From a virus (taxonomy: Duplodnaviria; Heunggongvirae; Uroviricota; Caudoviricetes), in IMG/VR virus record IMGVR_UViG_2703718799_000022: DNA of 8,378 nt; one strand, given 5' to 3'. The notes beneath the pieces were generated by a model that saw only the letters and a program-made list of their open reading frames with translations, did not search any database and was not told the origin of the DNA. Each line of letters opens with the position of its first letter. Within the stretch, counting starts at the first letter, position 1. Positions 1-8,378 of the stretch are shown here, one piece after another. The translations under genes and the position numbers were made by a program.

Positions 1-32
1 GCGCTCGTCTGATGTAAGAGATAAAGAAAGCG

Positions 33-284
33 ATGAGCGAAGTAATCATGATTGTCTCTCCCGGCAAATGGGTATCCGAAGAGCAGTTAATTGCGCTGAA
101 AGGAATAAAAAAAGGTACGTTAAAAAAGGCCCGGGAAAAATCGTTTATGGAAGGAAGGGAATATAAGCATGTCGCTCATGACGGTATGCCATGGGATAAC
201 AGTCCATGCTTTTACAACCTGGAAGAAATTGATCGCTGGATTGAGCGCCAGGCATCTGCAAGACCAAGACGTCATCTTGCTTGA
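33..284 (+). CDS. xis: Excisionase-like small DNA-binding protein (recombination directionality factor; resembles the DUF1233 putative-excisionase family of enterobacterial prophages)
   Basis: 83-aa ORF ending 20-35 nt upstream of the integrase start, same strand. The motif 'VSPGKWVSEEQL..GIK.GTL..AREKS..EGREYKHV..DG.PWDNS.C.YNLEEID.WIE' matches my recollection of small prophage excisionases. It is not lambda Xis. Start could be ATG 33 or ATG 48. Confidence 0.7.
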   Translation: MSEVIMIVSPGKWVSEEQLIALKGIKKGTLKKAREKSFMEGREYKHVAHDGMPWDNSPCFYNLEEIDRWIERQASARPRRHLA

Positions 285-318
285 CTAAAAGCAACACGAA
301 CCAATGAGAGAAGCTGAA

Positions 319-1599
319 ATGAAATATCCGACAGGCGTGGAAAACCATGGAGGGAAATTACGTATCTGGTTTGTTTATAAAGGTGTAAGAGTCCGGGAAA
401 ATCTTGGGGTTCCTGACACAGCAAAAAACAGGCGCATTGCAGGTGAGCTACGCGCCTCTGTTTGTTACGCAATAAAAACTGGCGCTTTCGACTATGCAAA
501 ACAGTTTCCCGCCTCACACAATCTGGAAAAATTTGGTGAGGCCCGACAAGATTTAACCATAAAAGAACTGGCTGAAAAATTTCTGGCACTGAAAGAAACT
601 GAAGTCGCAAAAACGTCACTCAACACGTACCGTGCCGTCATCAAAAATATTCTGAGCATAATCGGTGAAAAAAATCTTGCATCATCGATTAATAAAGAAA
701 AATTGCTGGCGGTACGTAAAGAGTTACTGACTGGATACCAGATCCCCAAAAGTAACTATATTGTTACACAACCAGGGAGATCGGCTGTTACCGTAAATAA
801 TTACATGACAAATCTTTACGCCGTGTTCCAGTTTGGTGTTGATAACGGTTATCTGGCAGACAATCCATTTAAGGGGATCTCACCATTAAAGGAGTCGAGA
901 ACCATCCCGGATCCACTTTCGCGGGAGGAGTTTATCCGCCTTATTGACGCGTGCAGAAATCAGCAAGCCAAAAATTTATGGTGTGTTTCCGTTTATACTG
1001 GGATTCGCCCTGGTGAACTCTGTGCGCTTGGGTGGGAAGATATAGATCTGAAAAATGGAACAATGATAATCAGAAGAAATCTGGCAAAAGACCGTTTTAC
1101 AGTACCAAAAACACAGGCGGGAACCAATCGTGTGATTCACCTTATTAAGCCCGCAATCGACGCTCTCCGGAGTCAGATGGCACTAACGAGACTGAGCAAA
1201 GAGCATATCATCGATGTTCACCTCAGAGAATTCGGCAGAACAGAGAAACAAAAATGTACCTTTGTTTTTCAACCTGAAGTGTCAGCGAAAGTAAAAAATT
1301 ATGGTGACCATTTTACCGTTGACTCAATAAGGCAGATGTGGGACGCAGCGGTAAAGCGTGCCGGAATCCGCCATCGCAAATCGTATCAGTCGAGACACAC
1401 TTATGCCTGCTGGTCGTTAACAGCAGGAGCTAACCCGGCATTCATTGCAAACCAGATGGGCCATGCAGATGCGCAAATGGTGTTTCAGGTGTACGGGAAA
1501 TGGATGTCAGAAAATAATAATGCGCAGGTAACGCTGTTAAATACACTGTTAAGCGAGTTTGCCCCAACCATGCCCCATAACGAAGAGATGAAAAGTTAA
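319..1599 (+). CDS. int: Phage integrase, tyrosine site-specific recombinase
   Basis: ORF 304-1599; ATG 319 preferred because GAGAAG lies 5 nt upstream, while ATG 304 has no Shine-Dalgarno. C-terminal catalytic signature present: R in 'GIRPGEL', 'SRHTYAC' (R-H box) and 'GHADAQMVFQVYGKW' (catalytic Tyr). Sits immediately downstream of xis. Sequence is unrelated to lambda Int. Confidence 0.9.
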   Translation: MKYPTGVENHGGKLRIWFVYKGVRVRENLGVPDTAKNRRIAGELRASVCYAIKTGAFDYAKQFPASHNLEKFGEARQDLTIKELAEKFLALKETEVAKTSLNTYRAVIKNILSIIGEKNLASSINKEKLLAVRKELLTGYQIPKSNYIVTQPGRSAVTVNNYMTNLYAVFQFGVDNGYLADNPFKGISPLKESRTIPDPLSREEFIRLIDACRNQQAKNLWCVSVYTGIRPGELCALGWEDIDLKNGTMIIRRNLAKDRFTVPKTQAGTNRVIHLIKPAIDALRSQMALTRLSKEHIIDVHLREFGRTEKQKCTFVFQPEVSAKVKNYGDHFTVDSIRQMWDAAVKRAGIRHRKSYQSRHTYACWSLTAGANPAFIANQMGHADAQMVFQVYGKWMSENNNAQVTLLNTLLSEFAPTMPHNEEMKS

Positions 1600-2000
1600 T
1601 TTTTTATTTATCAATTAGTTAGATTGAATGACTCTTGAAATCCATAATTCACAGGTGTTTTTTCCCATCCTGTGGTTTCCTTGGCGTTTTCTAGGTTTTT
1701 TCAGATAGTTGCATTTTTTTAAAAGCATCCTAAGTTCGATCTCAGTGTCTATCTGGGGCCTATTTCTGTCCCATATATGCCCCAAAAAACTCCCCAACAG
1801 ATAAGTAGTTTTTTCATGGATTTACGCGTAAAATCAATAACGGCTGGAAATCATTCAATACTCGCACTATCGAAAAATTTACCAGCCAACCGCAGCACGT
1901 TCTTGCATAAGGTGTGTCTGCGGTTTTTCAACTATTCAGATACATCACTCCCATCACATTCATTCCTCCACATCAAAGGCATATAGGCTATATCACCTTG
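1600..2000. other. Candidate attP region (core not identified)
   Basis: By analogy with lambda (xis then int then attP), the attachment site is expected within a few hundred bp past the integrase stop. The region is AT-rich with no credible ORF. I could not pinpoint a core or arm-type repeats by eye. Confidence 0.3.
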
Positions 2001-2247
2001 ATATTTTTCTTTTTCAGATAAAAACTGTTATCTATGTATACTTTTAAACCCAATCCGTGTAGAGTCTCTGCATAAGATAGTTTGCAGTTGCCGCTTCAGC
2101 TTGCGCCATAAACCGCCTGATTTTTGCTGCCACCTGTTAGCATTCCTGTATACCTGAAACGACAATGTTTATCTACGAACTTTAAGAACACCCAAGATAA
2201 AAATTGTCAACTATATCATATATAACACATTACTAATTCGAGGCTAT

Positions 2248-2361
2248 ATGAACAGCATACTGATAATCACTTCTCTCCTTATCATATTCAGCATTTTTAG
2301 TCATGCCCTAATAAAATTAGGGATTGGCATATCCAATAACCCAGACAAAACCGATGTATAA
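2248..2361 (+). CDS. Candidate 37-aa small hydrophobic peptide ([37 protein letters not shown]), predicted single transmembrane helix with polar C-tail
   Basis: ATG at 2248 preceded by GAGG at 2240-2243 (4-nt spacer). Open frame to TAA at 2359-2361. Not in the supplied ORF track (below its length cutoff). AT-rich, with five rare ATA Ile codons, so chance occurrence is not excluded. Lies 68 bp upstream of and co-directional with the 77-aa ORF. Confidence 0.3.
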
Positions 2362-2429
2362 GTCAACATATCCTGAATCAGACATACAATATCGCAATGA
2401 AAATCAATAATATTTTAAGGAATATCTTC

Positions 2430-2663
2430 ATGAAATCAAAAGACACCCTAAAGTGGTTCCCTGCGCAGCTTCCTGAAGTAAGAATTATCCTAGGGGATGC
2501 TGTAGTGGAAGTAGCAAAACAGGGAAGACCTATCAATACCAGAACATTGCTTGATTACATTGAAGGAAACATAAAGAAAAAATCATGGCTGGATAACAAA
2601 GAATTATTACAAACAGCGATATCAGTTCTTAAAGACAACCAAAATTTAAATGGTAAAATGTAA
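2430..2663 (+). CDS. Hypothetical 77-aa protein of unknown function
   Basis: The track ORF 2397-2663 has no RBS at ATG 2397. The in-frame ATG at 2430 is preceded by AAGGA (2417-2421) with an 8-nt spacer. No family recognised from the sequence (MKSKDTLKWFPAQLPEVRIILGDAVVEVAKQGRPINTRTLLDYIEGNIKKKSWLDNKELLQTAISVLKDNQNLNGKM). Confidence 0.5.
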   Translation: MKSKDTLKWFPAQLPEVRIILGDAVVEVAKQGRPINTRTLLDYIEGNIKKKSWLDNKELLQTAISVLKDNQNLNGKM

Positions 2664-2979
2664 TATAATAAACTTACTTTTTTATCATTTTTCCACTTTA
2701 ACAACATTTTGCTCCACTTTTCCACGACCAAACAACTTGAAATCTGGTTAAAATAACACGCAACACTATTCTTCTTCCTTGAGTCCGCCCGGAACTCGAA
2801 AAACAAACCGAGTTAAAGCCATTTTTCACAAAATCGATTTTGGGTCTCACCAAAATTACGGGGTTGCATACGCATTCGTTTATTTTCGAACGTGTACATA
2901 CAAATATGCACAAAAATAATCAAAATTATTTTCTGAGATGCATTATGATATGAACACCAATTTCGTATAGAGTCTCACT

Positions 2980-3570
2980 ATGTCTCGAATTTTTGCTTAC
3001 TGTCGGATATCAACGCTGGATCAGACCATCGAAAATCAACGCCGGGAAATCGAAAGTGCAGGTTTTAAAATCAAACCTCAGCAAATAATCGAAGAACACA
3101 TTAGCGGCTCAGCAGCAACCAGTGAGCGTCCTGGTTTTAACCGGTTGCTTGCTCGCCTGAAATGTGGTGATCAATTGATTGTGACAAAACTGGATCGCCT
3201 TGGTTGTAATGCAATGGATATCAGGAAAACAGTGGAACAACTGACCGAAACAGGTATCAGAGTGCATTGCTTAGCATTGGGGGGCATTGACCTGACCAGT
3301 CCAACAGGAAAAATGATGATGCACGTAATTTCAGCAGTCGCTGAATTTGAACGAGACCTTTTACTTGAACGCACTCATTCCGGGATAGTAAGAGCCCGCG
3401 GCGCAGGGAAACGTTTTGGTCGACCACCTGTGTTAAATGAAGAACAGAAACAGGTGGTATTCGAACGAATTAAGTCAGGTGTAAGTATAAGTGCCATTGC
3501 CCGGGAATTCAAAACCTCGCGGCAAACCATTTTAAGAGCCAAAGCAAAACTTCAGACACCTGACATATAA
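2980..3570 (+). CDS. pin: Serine DNA invertase of the Pin/Hin/Gin/Cin family
   Basis: 196-aa ORF with the N-terminal resolvase catalytic motif '[11 protein letters not shown]' (active-site Ser) and a C-terminal helix-turn-helix '[17 protein letters not shown]'. Near-identical, as far as I recall, to E. coli prophage Pin proteins (PinR/PinE). Located next to tfa as in Rac and e14. Confidence 0.93.
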
Positions 3571-3667
3571 AAAATAATCTCGGTGTGAGATGCTTTACGT
3601 CTTCCAAGCCCCCTTCCTTGCCGTAAATGGAAAGATACATCTAATTATAGAATTTATATGTTTTACC

Positions 3668-4243
3668 CTACGGCAGTGCTGGCCATTCAATATCCTGTGC
3701 AGTTGACGTATCAACACGGTTCAGCAACACCCGATACTTTTTCCAGGCTTCCAGCAATGAGGTTTCTTCCTCCGTTGCGATTTCCAGATCTACAGCATCC
3801 TGAAGTGGCGCAATATGCTCACTGGCTACCTGCATCAGGCTGTTTTTTGTTTCTTCCGCCTCTCGGATCCGGAACAGTTTTTCTGCTTCTGCATCTTTCA
3901 CCCAGGCTGTGCCGTTCCACTTCTGAAACTCCCCTTCCGGCGATAACCAGGTAACATTTTCCGGTAACGGACCGAGTTCAGAAATAAATAACGCGTCCCC
4001 TGACGCTACGTCATAAACCGTTTTACCCCGATGGTCTTCAACGAGATGCCACGATGCCTTATCACTGTTGAAAACAGCCACAAAGCCAGCAGGAATATCT
4101 GGTGGTGCAATATCGGTACTGTTTGCTGGCAGACCTGTATGAGGCGGAATATATGCGTCACCTTCACCAATAAATTCATTAGTTCCGGCCAGCAGATTAT
4201 AAATTTTTATGGTCCGTGGTTGTTCACTCATTCTGAATGCCAT
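3668..4243 (-). CDS. tfa: Tail fibre assembly protein (chaperone for Stf)
   Basis: 191-aa ORF starting [24 protein letters not shown]..., matching lambda Tfa as I recall it. The start ATG (4243-4241) overlaps the stf stop TAA (4245-4243) in the sequence TAATG. Confidence 0.93.
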
Positions 4244-7002
4244 TATGCAAGCCTCACAATATAGTTAAATGCGATGTTTTTGACGGTGTTTTCCGCGTTA
4301 CCAGCAGCGTTAACGGTGATGGTGTGTCCATGTGAACCAATCGCAACGGAGTGCGTATGAGCACCAATACCGACAGTATGCGCGTGTGCACCTGCAGATG
4401 CTGCTGTGCCGGACAGTGAATGGCTATGATTACCATCTGTACTGGTATTCGCTAACCACCCCGTAGACATACCTACTGAGCCTTGTACACCCCAGGTATT
4501 TTGACCTGAGCTTGTATAACCATATTGATAAGTATCTTTAAAAACACTGGGGTTAAATCGACGGCCATCTCTATGGCTGTGATTACCAGCTGCATTCGTG
4601 CTGCCACTTAAACTATGGGTATGCGCACCAGTGTTATTCGTGGATTTAGTGCCGTAATCAAACGACGATGTGGTTTTCGTCCCCAAATCCGTACTGGATG
4701 CGCTGGCGCTGTGGGTATGCGATTTAATGCCGTCCTGTTCCTGAGACAATACGGCCCGACCACTGGCAGGTTTGCCCTTAATCGTCCAGCCACGCATATC
4801 AGGGATCACGCCTGACGGATAAGCCGCTGCAAGTTTCGGGTATGCAGATTTGTCAAAAGCCTGCCCCTGCATCAGGGCATAGCCAGACGAATAAATATCG
4901 TAAGTATCACCAGATGTATTAACCCAGGCAAAATTTGTAAACCCTGTCAATGTGCGCTGCCATAAAGCACCAGTAATCCCCTTCGGATTACCATTACCTG
5001 CACGTAAAACAAGTTCAGATATACCTGCCTGTTGAGGTGACCCCACGTTAAATCCAGCGCCACCAATCAACGTAATTGAAACAACAGAACTCGCCTGTGG
5101 CATGGTTACCGTTGCTAATTTGAACCAACCAGCACCACCGCTGAATGACATTGTTGTTGAGTTAAGCGTACCAATATCTTTCGGCGTCAGTGTTATATCC
5201 GCTGAAAGCGCCTTACCATTCACCTTACGGGCAGAAGGTACCCGACCATTCGCATTGTCATTAGCTGCTTTCACTGCTTTCGGTGTCGCAGCAAGCGTTT
5301 CAGATGTGCTGTTGGTTGCACTACTGAGCTGGACAATTCCTTTTTGTGCTGTCGTAGCGTCCTGTGCGGTGTATTTCCCGTTAGCCAGGTCATACGCGGC
5401 CTTAACGGCTTTTGGCGTTGCCGCCTGTGACTCGGAAGTGCTGTTAGTCGCACTGCTGAGCTGAACTATCCCTTTCTGTCCTGTCGTTGCATCCTGTGCG
5501 GTGTATTTCCCGTTAGCCAGGTCATACGCGGCCTTAACGGCTTTTGGCGTTGCCGCCTGTGACTCGGAAGTGCTGTTGGTCGCACTGCTGAGCTGTACTC
5601 CCCCCTTTTTCGTCGTGCTCGCATCCTCAAGCGCCACGGCGGATGCAATATCCTCTGCACGTTTTGCCGCTGTCTCAGCGCGCGTTGCTGCGGATTCTGC
5701 CGTACTTTTGCTCTGTGCTGCCGCTGCCGCACTGCCAGCAGCCTCTGTCGCCTTCGTGGATGCCGTCGTGGCGCTGCCCCTCGCTGCTGACGCCTGTCTG
5801 GTCGCCTCATCTTTTGAAGCAGACGCAGATGATGCCGATGACGCCGCCGAACTGGCGGACGATGCGGCAGCCGTTTTTGAGGATTCTGCGCTGGTTTCCG
5901 ACGCTTTCGCGTTCGTTTCGGATGTCTTCGCTGCGGAAGCAGACCTCGCTGCTGCGCTGGCCTGTTCAGTGGCTTCGCCAGCCTTCGTTGTGGCTGTTGA
6001 AGCGGATGATGCGGCGCTTTCTGCCGATTTTCCGGCGGCGGTGGCACTGACTGCTGCCTCCTCTGCCTTAATGGACGCCTCACGGGCCGATGATGCAGCT
6101 GCTGTCTCAGAGTCTGCCGCAGCTGAGGCGCTCTGTTCCGCTGCCGTTTCAGAAGACTTAGCATTCGTCTCGGACGTTTTTGCCGCCTTCACGGAATTTC
6201 CTGCCGCCATTGCCGAGGAGGCTGCACTGCTGGCGCTTGTGGAGGCGTTCGTTTCTGATGATTTTGCCGCCTCTTTGGAGGCCGCCGCATCTCTGGCTGA
6301 AGTGGCGGCTTCTGACGCTTTCGTCGTCGCAGTGGATGCAGAAGTGGCTGCTGATTTTTGTGACGCTGCAGCATTCGTTTCTGACGTTTTCGCGGCACCG
6401 GCACTGGTGGCCGCCGCGCTTTTTGAGGACTCTGCAGCGGCAGCACTTTTTGATGCTTCTGTGGCCTTTGTTGATGCTGTTCCTGCGCTGGAAGACGCTG
6501 ACTGAGCCGACGTCGCGGCCTGCCCGGCTGATGTGCTGGCTGCACGTGCTGAGCCTGCAGCATCAGTCGCATGGGTTGCCGCCTCACGGGCTGATGTGCC
6601 GGCATCGCCGGCTGACTTCTTCGCGGCTGCCGTGTTCTGTGCCACCGCGGACGCGTTACGCGCCACCTCTTCCACCATCAGCTCAAAACGGCGCAGTGCC
6701 TCCGGACGGGCATCATCCTCCGTCATGGCACCGAGAAAATCATTCAGCGTACCGGGTCGGGAATCTTCATACACGGTGATGGTCCCGGCATGTGACGGCG
6801 GGAATCCTTCCACCAACAGAATAACGCTGTACTGACCGTACTCAACGTCCATACTGTAACGCCCGGCTTCATCCGGATTTTCTGAGGCCAGCGTGTTCAC
6901 CACCACCGTGGTGCTGTTACGTTTTGCTTTCAGCTGGATTGTGCAGTTCTGTACCGGTTTTCCTGTGCCGTCTTTCAGTACACCTGAAATCTTTACTGCC
7001 AT
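4243..7002 (-). CDS. stf: Side tail fibre protein (lambda Stf-like), apparently intact
   Basis: Track ORF 4243-7008 begins at a GTG; the ATG two codons in (7002-7000) gives [26 protein letters not shown]..., the lambda Stf N-terminus as I recall it. Long Ala/Ser/Thr-rich shaft, three tandem 44-aa repeats, His-rich HxH motifs near the C-terminus, and the C-terminal '[18 protein letters not shown]' typical of Stf and T4 gp37-type fibres. Confidence 0.93.
5240..5606 (-). repeat. Tandem direct repeat, 132-bp period, about three copies, inside stf
   Basis: 'ctgagctg' recurs at 5324, 5456 and 5588 (spacing exactly 132). Copies 5341-5463 and 5473-5595 are nearly identical at DNA level; the third (lowest-coordinate) copy is more diverged. 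Encodes the 44-aa unit '[44 protein letters not shown]'. Confidence 0.85.
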
Positions 7003-7011
7003 ATTCACCCC

Positions 7012-7040
7012 ACAAAAAAGCCCGCCTGAACCGGCGGGCT
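7012..7040 (-). terminator. Rho-independent terminator downstream of lom, immediately upstream of the stf start
   Basis: Minus-strand sequence agcccgcc-ggttca-ggcgggct forms an 8-bp GC-rich stem with a 6-nt loop, followed by ttttttgtgg. About 10 nt separate the T-tract from the stf ATG. Confidence 0.7.
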
Positions 7041-7066
7041 GTCATAACACTGTGTTACCTGGCTAA

Positions 7067-7666
7067 TCAGAATTTATAACCGACACCCACGATGAAACTG
7101 TTGGTACGCCAGTCACCGCTGCCGGAGCCTTCATAAGCGACGTCAACGGCCACGGATTCGGTCGGGTTAAACTGCACGCCAGCTCCCCACGCCAGAGACG
7201 TGTTGCTGTGGCGACCGTCATCACTTCCGGTCAGCACATCGTGCGTTTTCCCCTTGTTGTCAGTTACGCGGATATAATCTCCGGAGAAAGTCGAAACACG
7301 GCTGTAAGCCATACCCGCCATCGCATACGCGCTGAACCATTCATTCACGCGCACAGACGGCCCCGCCATCACGCTGAACCAGCGGTTACGCACGGAATCT
7401 TCATGCCAGCGGGTATCGCTGTAATGCGTTTTTTGCTCATCTTCAGCGTTGGCATAACTGAATGACGTAATCAGCCCCAGCGTGTCCGTAAACTCATAAC
7501 GGTATTTCACGTTAATCCCGTTCAGATTATCGCTGCCGGGAGCGTTCGTACGGGCATGAAGATACCCTGCGCTCAGTGTGGCCTGCTGCTCAGACGCCCA
7601 TGCAGGCGCACCGGATACGGCCAGACAGATGGCTGCGGACAAAATGGCTGCACAAACTTTACGCAT
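7067..7666 (-). CDS. lom: Outer membrane beta-barrel protein Lom (Ail/Lom/PagC family)
   Basis: 199-aa [29 protein letters not shown]... with a signal peptide and the C-terminal 'FIVGVGYKF' beta-barrel end; matches lambda Lom as I recall it. GAGAGG lies 6 nt upstream of the ATG. Sits between J and stf as in lambda. Confidence 0.95.
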
Positions 7667-7690
7667 AATTACCTCTCGCTTTTCTGCAAT

Positions 7691-7720
7691 AAAAAAGGCG
7701 TCATTCCTGACGCCCTTTAT
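7691..7720 (-). terminator. Rho-independent terminator between J and lom
   Basis: Inverted repeat ggcgtca-ttcc-tgacgcc (7-bp stem, 4-nt loop). On the minus strand it is followed by ttttttattg; on the plus strand by ctttattgg, so it may act in both directions. Confidence 0.7.
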
Positions 7721-7736
7721 TGGGGTTATAAATATT

Positions 7737-8378
7737 TCAACGAATACTGATGCCGGAAGCAGCTTTTTTGGTCACAATCACCGTACAATCGGTGATATTG
7801 CCTGCCCCCTGATTGCCTTTCTGGAAAATCTTAAACTCCAGAGTGACGCTACCACCACCACTAGGCATATCAATAACTGCACTGTAACTACCGGGAATGG
7901 CCCCTTTAGTTTCTCTGGATGCGATTAATACGCCGTTTTTGCGAACTTCAAAACCATAACCCGTGTATCGCGTGCCTCCTGGGTTATTTCCGCTCCCCGG
8001 ATCGTCATACGCTATACCGTTAAAAATAATGGGCGGAATAATAATCTGGCGGTCAAAGTTATGATCATCGCTGATGGTGACTGTAACCGTACCGTTTGGT
8101 GTTTCCGTGTTACCCCACGTACCGACTTTTTTCGGGAAGGCTTTTGATACAGCTTTAACGAAATCCCCTCTGACCTGGGTCGCCTCCAGCATGCCCTTAA
8201 TCGTACAGTTCTGGTTAATCGTGACATTGTTGAGCGTTCCTGAGTTCGCATTCACACTGCCACTGATATCCGCATTTTTAGCGGTCAGCTTTCCGTCTGA
8301 TGTCAGGGAAAATACCGGAGGACTGCCACCGCTGGTAATGGTGGGGGCCGTCAGGCGCTTCAGGAACACGTCGTTCAT
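7737..8378 (-). CDS. J: Tail tip host-specificity protein J, C-terminal ~213 aa only (5' part of the gene lies beyond the window end)
   Basis: Synteny J-lom-stf-tfa as in lambda. The motif 'LTAKNADISGSVNANSGTL.NVTI..NCTI.G' and terminal '...KKAASGISIR' resemble the lambda J C-terminal region as I recall it. The ORF reaches the window edge, so it is partial. Confidence 0.8.
   Translation of the reverse strand: MNDVFLKRLTAPTITSGGSPPVFSLTSDGKLTAKNADISGSVNANSGTLNNVTINQNCTIKGMLEATQVRGDFVKAVSKAFPKKVGTWGNTETPNGTVTVTISDDHNFDRQIIIPPIIFNGIAYDDPGSGNNPGGTRYTGYGFEVRKNGVLIASRETKGAIPGSYSAVIDMPSGGGSVTLEFKIFQKGNQGAGNITDCTVIVTKKAASGISIR

Follow-up and report, generated by a model that had tools for sequence, protein, structure and literature searches.

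The 8,378-nt stretch of DNA considered here (the window) is in all likelihood, and we would put the probability at roughly 85%, the joint in the middle of a tandem prophage array at the ydfJ (Qin) attachment site of E. coli. Its integrase and tail-fibre genes lie side by side, which an earlier note had taken for phage or excised gene order. That reading is probably wrong. The adjacency is unlikely to come from a free or excised phage, because the matches at about 100% identity are all to closed chromosomes, where each module is part of its own ydfJ prophage; two lambda-like prophages lying head to tail are the probable source. Such an arrangement at ydfJ is ordinary and already described, prophage clusters and tandem prophages at this locus (PPydfJ) having been reported in STEC/EPEC (Nakamura et al. 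2021, PLoS Pathog, PMC8112680). The only new thing is an in-frame deletion of 201 bp in stf, which is unique to the window, and no new biology comes from the window.

All the genes that the earlier note named are where it had placed them, as judged by open reading frames and Pfam domains, with int stopping at 1599 and tfa at 3668. On the plus strand the xis-like gene of the left-hand, nleC-carrying prophage (33..284; PF06806, DUF1233 excisionase, E = 1.6e-31) is directly upstream of the int of the same prophage, which encodes a tyrosine integrase of the ydfJ/Qin type (304..1599; PF12167 and PF00589; an alternative start at 319 gives 426 aa). Beyond the attachment site, also on the plus strand, come ynfT (2248..2361), for a YnaM-like small protein (PF23676), and ydfK (2430..2663), annotated as encoding a cold shock protein, their products being 100% identical to K-12 YnfT and YdfK, and then pin (2980..3570), a serine DNA invertase gene with Resolvase and HTH_7 domains and the orthologue of pinQ; a Pin invertase between att and tfa was correctly recognized from the outset. 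The minus strand carries tfa, for the tail fibre assembly protein (3668..4243; PF02413, Caudo_TAP), stf, for a side tail fibre of 919 aa (4243..7002; phage_tail_N, three Phage_fiber_2 repeats and Collar), lom, for an Ail/Lom outer-membrane protein (7067..7666; PF06316, E = 1.4e-125), and, cut by the window end, the part of J encoding the C-terminal 213 aa (7737..8378; PF12421), the receptor-binding part of the tail tip protein.

More than 15 closed E. coli O26 chromosomes match the window at about 100% identity, and at least 80% of it is covered in one place in 83 genomes. In the O26 chromosomes positions 1-1634 are the xis/int end of a lambdoid prophage carrying nleC, with DinI and nleC at the end far from int, and positions 1652-8378 are the ynfT-ydfK-pinQ-tfa-stf-lom-J end of another prophage, Qin-like and complete; complete prophages are seen on both sides of the joint in chromosomes that are about 100% identical. 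Strain 07_3986 displays the array in full. Its left prophage runs from ydfJ' through DinI, nleC, tail, head, lysis and early genes, exo and xis to int, and its right prophage from ynfT, ydfK, pin, tfa, stf, lom and J through tail, head and terminase to Qin lysis and early genes, with xisR::IS66 and int2 at the far end, next to rspB.

Each half is also found alone beside host DNA, with the break exactly at the core of the attachment site. O26 strain 11368 has the second prophage only, and its match to the window begins exactly at 1634, beside ydfJ'. The window's Int, identical across all 431 aa, adjoins three different right-hand neighbours. With DNA at least 99.9% identical over 1-1651, it is followed by rspB host DNA in four of the loci checked by blastn, where the break is at 1651; loci L010 and L018 have a window-type arm after it, whereas L011 and L016 have a DinI-nleC arm there. 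The description of the window as a modular recombinant holds for the mosaic of lambda-like stf/tfa with non-lambda int/xis/pin, a patchwork that is ordinary lambdoid mosaicism; it does not hold for one phage genome, what is joined being probably two prophages, at a site-specific-recombination joint.

An attP had been predicted between int and the tail-fibre genes, and a complete attP-type (P-O-P') site is indeed there, between int and pin, with the P arm on the int side and the P' arm opposite. Its core, TTGAAATCCATAATTCA (1635..1651), was defined by aligning the B-O-P', P-O-P' and P-O-B' junctions and is P-type on both sides; genome-wide, chromosomal matches end at 1634-1637 or at 1651, and across the core the window runs collinear with the attP of free phages. 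The junction alignments place the predicted strand-exchange region within the shared GAAATCCATAA of the core. TGCCCCA occurs only three times in the window, always in the same orientation and flanking the core: twice in the P arm, at plus-strand positions that fall within the 3' end of int (1560..1577, starting at 1560 and 1571), and once, at 1778, in the P' arm of the right-hand Qin-like prophage (1652..1800), which also has CTCCCCA at 1790. The motifs are conserved, the two of the P arm in every P arm aligned, and the TGCCCCA copies are candidate arm-type Int sites. The stretch of the P' arm at 1634-1784 is 81% identical to the P' arm of the other prophage, the two diverging thereafter. No tRNA gene was found in the window, and therefore attB is not a tRNA gene; the attB as reconstructed, 302 bp in length, is present within ydfJ at 100% identity, full length and uninterrupted, in 2009 of the 5426 complete E. 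coli genomes, and 277 of the 5426 have the P-O-P' joint at the ydfJ att, so that tandem arrays at this locus are common. What this analysis documents directly is the core, all three kinds of junction, an intact attB and the fact that the two halves can occur apart. The att of ydfJ prophages has been given as 18-19 bp, and the PPydfJ of O26:H11 strain 11368 was used to sequence the attP region (PMC8112680).

How might the joint have arisen? The two phages use integrases that are about 95% identical and the same 17-19 bp core; one would integrate into an att site flanking the other, with Int-mediated exchange within GAAATCCATAA, and the outcome would be three sites, B-O-P' on the ydfJ side, P-O-P' in the middle (the window) and P-O-B' on the rspB side. 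A tandem array, by the way it is built, has an attP-type site at its central joint, just as a tandem dilysogen of lambda has attP in the middle. Int would on this scheme have catalysed the joining. Homologous recombination between related prophages, by RecA- or Rad52-type exchange, is conceivable given the 81-93% identity between the two prophages in their P and P' arms, but in every comparison identity switches within the 17-bp core (at 1634-1637 on one side and at 1651 on the other), and the B- and P-type polymorphisms flanking GAAATCCATAA segregate as site-specific exchange would give. With the breakpoints confined to the core this origin was rejected, and it seems to us scarcely credible.

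The window serves mainly as a caution. Where int and tail-fibre genes adjoin and an attP-like site separates them, the DNA need not be that of a free or excised phage; tandem lysogeny at a single attB gives exactly the same picture. A single temperate phage, whether as virion genome or as excised circle, with the order J-lom-stf-tfa-pin-ydfK-attP-int-xis is nevertheless a real architecture: the four phage records mEp460_ev081, Tritos, HannyBb and PhiR42_1 have the same order across the whole window and a genuine, complete P-O-P' attP with the same core and arms. The core of the window is P-type on both flanks. The window's stf allele is absent from all 5426 complete genomes, which means that its source is not among the genomes that define the tandem context. 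A single phage is still not the best explanation for the window's sequence. When the whole window is compared with phages and bacteria, matches at about 100%, on both sides of the core, are found only in chromosomes, the chromosomal arrays, whereas the four free phages are only 93.5-96% identical, and among phage records none combines a match above about 97% in the int half with a match to the right half. The Int of these phages is the Qin-like allele (98.8% identical to Int2) and not that of the window, to which the Int of mEp460_ev081 is only 95.5% identical (the Xis of the window is 98.8% identical to the mEp460_ev081 Xis). Because the mEp460_ev081 Int is nearer to Int2, the window unites int from one prophage lineage and the P' arm from a second, just as the arrays do. 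All told a single phage is improbable, and the joint of two prophages in tandem is the reading that we prefer.

The tail-fibre block is where the window stands apart. Relative to every chromosomal match, stf lacks 201 bp at 4889/4892, where 2 nt of filler are found; the deletion is in frame and removes 67 aa, including the start of the collar domain, of which the first 11 profile positions are missing. The 919-aa product that results has no record in a large gene index. Could the adjacency itself be an artefact, a chimeric contig joined via the shared att core and the homologous P' arms? The matching strains are rich in lambdoid prophage repeats, which lie at 15-22 places per genome, and a deletion with filler found in no complete genome could hint at a draft-assembly problem. 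However, the same joint recurs base for base in many complete-genome assemblies and in independent draft assemblies, and the stf deletion is 3.2 kb from the joint and unrelated to it; an artefact of this kind is accordingly very improbable.

In other respects the block is of a familiar kind, having the make-up of a lambda-type stf-tfa module: a prophage tail fibre N-terminal domain, fibre repeats and a collar, then the Tfa chaperone. The earlier view of these genes as lambda-like was well founded, with Tfa 95% identical to lambda Tfa (and 97% to TfaQ) and Stf 80% identical to its lambda counterpart towards the N-terminus and 71% towards the C-terminus. Lom and its lambda namesake are 43% identical, and the C-terminus of J is 50% identical to lambda J residues 925-1131. 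Lambda has the same module order, J-lom-stf-tfa-b region-attP-int-xis, and its stf and tfa are homologous to those of the window (86-93% in blocks at the nucleotide level), but its b region is replaced in the window by ynfT-ydfK-pinQ, apart from a 96-bp remnant, and its attB is at gal-bio, whereas that of the window is in ydfJ.

Among the closest known relatives are the PPydfJ arrays (PMC8112680), which share the ydfJ locus and the 18-19 bp att and consist of lambda-like, effector-carrying prophages in tandem; the PPydfJ of strain 11368 carries the right half of the window at about 100% identity, and the private 201-bp stf deletion is the only difference of the window from these arrays, which are one documented route for STEC to gather effector- and Stx-carrying prophages. 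K-12 Qin is another. Positions 1634-4439 are 98.1% identical to its ydfJ'-ynfT-ydfK-pinQ-tfaQ-stfQ end, and towards its 3' end int is 92% identical to the K-12 intQ pseudogene, as far as the core. Qin, however, has decayed to a remnant that lacks J and lom and whose stfQ is truncated, whereas the window has lom, J and, the 67-aa deletion aside, a full-length stf, and its P' arm is joined to the int of another prophage instead of to ydfJ'.

The int and xis of the window had been judged unlike those of lambda, and protein comparison agrees. Lambda Int has only remote superfamily similarity to the window's Int (24% identity over 84 aa, E = 8e-5), lambda Xis, of a different family, gives only a 3-residue match (E = 9.4) to the window's Xis, and attB is in ydfJ; they are not the lambda proteins. 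Int has an Arm-DNA-bind_2 domain (PF12167) at residues 9-71 (84 bits) and a Phage_integrase domain (PF00589; 69 bits), and is 95% identical to the Qin-like Int2. Its R235 aligns to lambda R212 and its G386-H387 to lambda G332-H333; an R364-H-T box and Y397 are discernible by eye, and the first His of box II appears, on motif inspection, to be replaced by Tyr (Y361).

If the joint is live, and it may still be recombination-competent, it could serve in trans as a substrate for the intact Int and Xis of the nleC prophage, and the neighbouring Qin-like prophage could then be excised or co-excised, with new phage combinations in prospect; the Qin-like prophage's own xis is broken by IS66 in one sister strain, 07_3986. 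That the hybrid P-O-P' joint is a live attP enabling trans excision, and, as a separate matter, that the 67-aa deletion makes a genuine fibre variant of Stf and is no assembly error, is offered as a tentative and rather doubtful proposal. In situ cos-to-cos packaging across the joint, by which a hybrid phage would combine the structural genes of the second prophage with the early genes of the first, was considered and set aside as unlikely, because the packaging and head modules of the two prophages differ: by annotation, one has the lambda-type pair of small and large terminase, its decoration and capsid proteins being separate, and the other DUF1441 and large terminase with a ClpP-capsid fusion. 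The cos and terminase specificities of the two probably differ also.

An Rfam scan of the window found a single family, 'IS009', which falls within the tfa coding sequence, besides two chance hits below threshold. Pin is 98% identical to K-12 PinQ and 38% to PinE, and its catalytic R9-x-S11 motif is conserved with both. Only one stf-tfa set is present in the window, in which a gix/pix-type crossover site (AAACCnnGGTTT core) had no match at up to 1 mismatch, the e14 pix site had none at up to 3, and there is no long inverted repeat suited to an invertible segment; the same search approach recovered the e14 control crossover sites. A Pin-controlled tail-fibre switch in cis within the window was rejected, there being no crossover sites and no suitable inverted repeat. 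PinQ itself has been described as acting in trans, on the P segment of e14 (PMC12529663).

Open reading frames called in six frames, together with Pfam scans, recover every gene that the earlier note had named. The plus strand carries a DUF1233-family excisionase (33-284), a tyrosine integrase whose N-terminus is an arm-binding domain (304-1599), small genes identical to K-12 ynfT (2248-2361) and ydfK (2430-2663), and a serine invertase (2980-3570); the minus strand encodes tfa (3668-4243), stf (4243-7002) and lom (7067-7666), as well as the final 213 codons of J (7737-8378). No tRNA is present in the window. In minus-strand direction the genes run J-lom-stf-tfa-(pin, ydfK, ynfT)-att-int-xis, which is the vegetative gene order of lambda. 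The adjacency of integration and tail-fibre genes had been taken as phage or excised order: the observation itself, the attP-type site and the mosaic composition stand, the phage origin probably does not, and the adjacency most likely comes from tandem prophages at ydfJ, the E. coli chromosomal site also used by the K-12 cryptic prophage Qin. Tandem prophages at ydfJ are already a known phenomenon.

The att site was located by aligning the window with the left and right junctions of the O26 strain 07_3986 and of K-12, with the junction of O26:H11 strain 11368 and with the free temperate coliphage mEp460_ev081. With host arms B and B', core O, and phage arms P (int side) and P', the B-O-P' junctions (07_3986 left, 11368, K-12 left) consist of AACTGGAAATCCATAATTCA and then the P' arm, the P-O-B' junctions (07_3986 right, K-12 right) of the P arm and then CTCTTGAAATCCATAAATTCAAGC, and both the window and mEp460_ev081 have the P arm, TTGAAATCCATAATTCA and the P' arm. 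On this alignment strand exchange has to fall inside the shared GAAATCCATAA. The core thus placed at 1635-1651 is supported in three further ways: a 302-bp attB reconstructed by joining both host arms occurs 100% identical and uninterrupted within ydfJ in 2009 of 5426 genomes; genome-wide matches to a 401-bp probe over the joint, whose P-O-P' form is carried by 277 genomes, end at 1634-1637 or at 1651; and the result agrees with the 18-19 bp att that PMC8112680 gives for prophages at ydfJ. The motif TGCCCCA has just three copies in the window (1560, 1571 and 1778), and a related CTCCCCA at 1790 makes a fourth; the four flank the core, share one orientation, are conserved among related P and P' arms, and are candidate arm-type Int binding sites.

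A comparison with 5426 complete E. coli genomes gives 100% identity to the window, save for one stf indel, in more than 15 O26 chromosomes; in 83 genomes a single place accounts for at least 80% of the window. That the joint is an assembly chimera is unlikely, as the identical joint recurs in many complete-genome assemblies. In 07_3986 it is the point where two lambdoid prophages, both complete and arranged in tandem, meet, and the window spans it. The array opens with ydfI and a ydfJ' lacking its N-terminus; the first prophage runs from DinI, nleC, a short fibre, lom, J, tail and lambda-type head and terminase genes through lysis, Q, early genes, dicB and exo to xis and int; the second from ynfT, ydfK, pin, tfa, stf, lom, J, tail, a ClpP-capsid-fusion head and terminase through Qin-type lysis genes with cspB and cspF, Q, relBE, dicB, exo and xisR::IS66 to int2; and rspB closes it. 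The xis of this Qin-like prophage is interrupted by an IS66-family element (locus L004, 17456-20414). In 11368 the first prophage is absent here and the match starts exactly at 1634, straight after ydfJ'. Many otherwise identical O26 chromosomes have IS600 (IS3-family) within the matching region and an integrase annotated twice, which suggests that IS600 splits int in these sister chromosomes; the window's copy is intact.

Origin of the window from a single phage is possible. Its attP and gene order recur in four phage records, the top match among 50,697 phage records being mEp460_ev081 (95.8% identity, same gene order), but the four are 94-96% identical to the window as against 100% for the arrays. 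The two halves are moreover separable. A look-up in a large contig index gave loci with an identical 431-aa Int, whose DNA over 1-1651 is at least 99.9% identical and whose right-hand neighbour is of three kinds: host DNA of the rspB side, breaking at 1651, in four of the loci checked by blastn (L009, L012, L013 and L017); the window-type ynfT-ydfK-pin-tfa-stf arm (L010, L018); or a DinI-nleC arm (L011, L016), whose P' arms are homologous to 1784 and divergent beyond. The right half of the window shares 98.1% identity with the end of K-12 Qin that lies next to ydfJ'. The window Int is 95% identical to Int2 of the Qin-like prophage and that of mEp460_ev081 98.8%, so the window pairs the int of one prophage lineage with the P' arm of another, a pairing to be expected of a tandem joint and not of a single excised phage.

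The comparisons demonstrate that the junctions are of three types with one core, that an intact attB exists elsewhere and that the breakpoints are limited to the core; a joint made by homologous recombination is disfavoured, since the breakpoints stay within the core. For tandem prophages, an incoming phage with a ydfJ-type Int would recombine its attP with an att flanking a resident ydfJ prophage, and the exchange would yield B-O-P', P-O-P' and P-O-B' sites.

The description of the DNA as part lambda-like and part not is correct, and the mosaic is ordinary for lambdoid phages. Protein comparison with lambda gives 95% identity for Tfa, 80% and 71% for the N- and C-terminal parts of Stf, 43% for Lom and 50% for the J C-terminus; Int has 24% only, over 84 residues, and Xis no meaningful match. 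DNA homology to lambda is limited to tfa/stf blocks, the J 3' end and a 96-bp b-region remnant just beyond the P' arm (1828-1923; 83% identical to lambda 24162-24256, between ea47 and ea31). On motif inspection Int residues 361-366 are YQSRHT, with Tyr for the first His of box II HxxR, as in the Qin-like and mEp460_ev081 integrases; here the automatic alignment to lambda Int was shifted. At 1450-1647 the int 3' end and the P arm match the termini of many Stx2a-converting prophage records with 99% identity; those records end at the att core, and Shiga-toxin phages therefore also carry this Int/att module.

Relative to all chromosomal matches, the minus-strand stf lacks 201 bp in frame at 4889/4892 (203 bp replaced by AA); the product loses 67 aa (VAIGNY...PIPWPSDTVP), and its tail collar domain lacks the first 11 profile positions. 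This allele is in none of the 5426 complete genomes, and its 919-aa product has no record in the gene index; a private mutation and an assembly error are both possible. Elsewhere in stf, the 44-aa Phage_fiber_2 repeats are encoded by three tandem 132-bp repeats (5246-5641), of which the later two share 76% and 61% identity with the first, and the Ala/Ser/Thr-rich part upstream is about 60% GC with numerous short repeats.

The invertase, 98% identical to PinQ and 38% to PinE, with catalytic Ser11 conserved, is the PinQ orthologue. A search that recovers the sites of e14 found no gix/pix-type crossover site in the window, nor is there an alternative fibre segment in it. According to a 2025 paper (PMC12529663), PinQ of K-12 acts in trans to invert the P segment of e14; by homology this would be the likeliest role of the window Pin as well. 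Finally, Rfam IS009 (RF02111) matches at full length (226.7 bits; 3702-3900, minus strand) wholly within coding sequence at the 3' end of tfa and on its sense strand, and this 'sRNA' family may just describe conserved tfa coding sequence.
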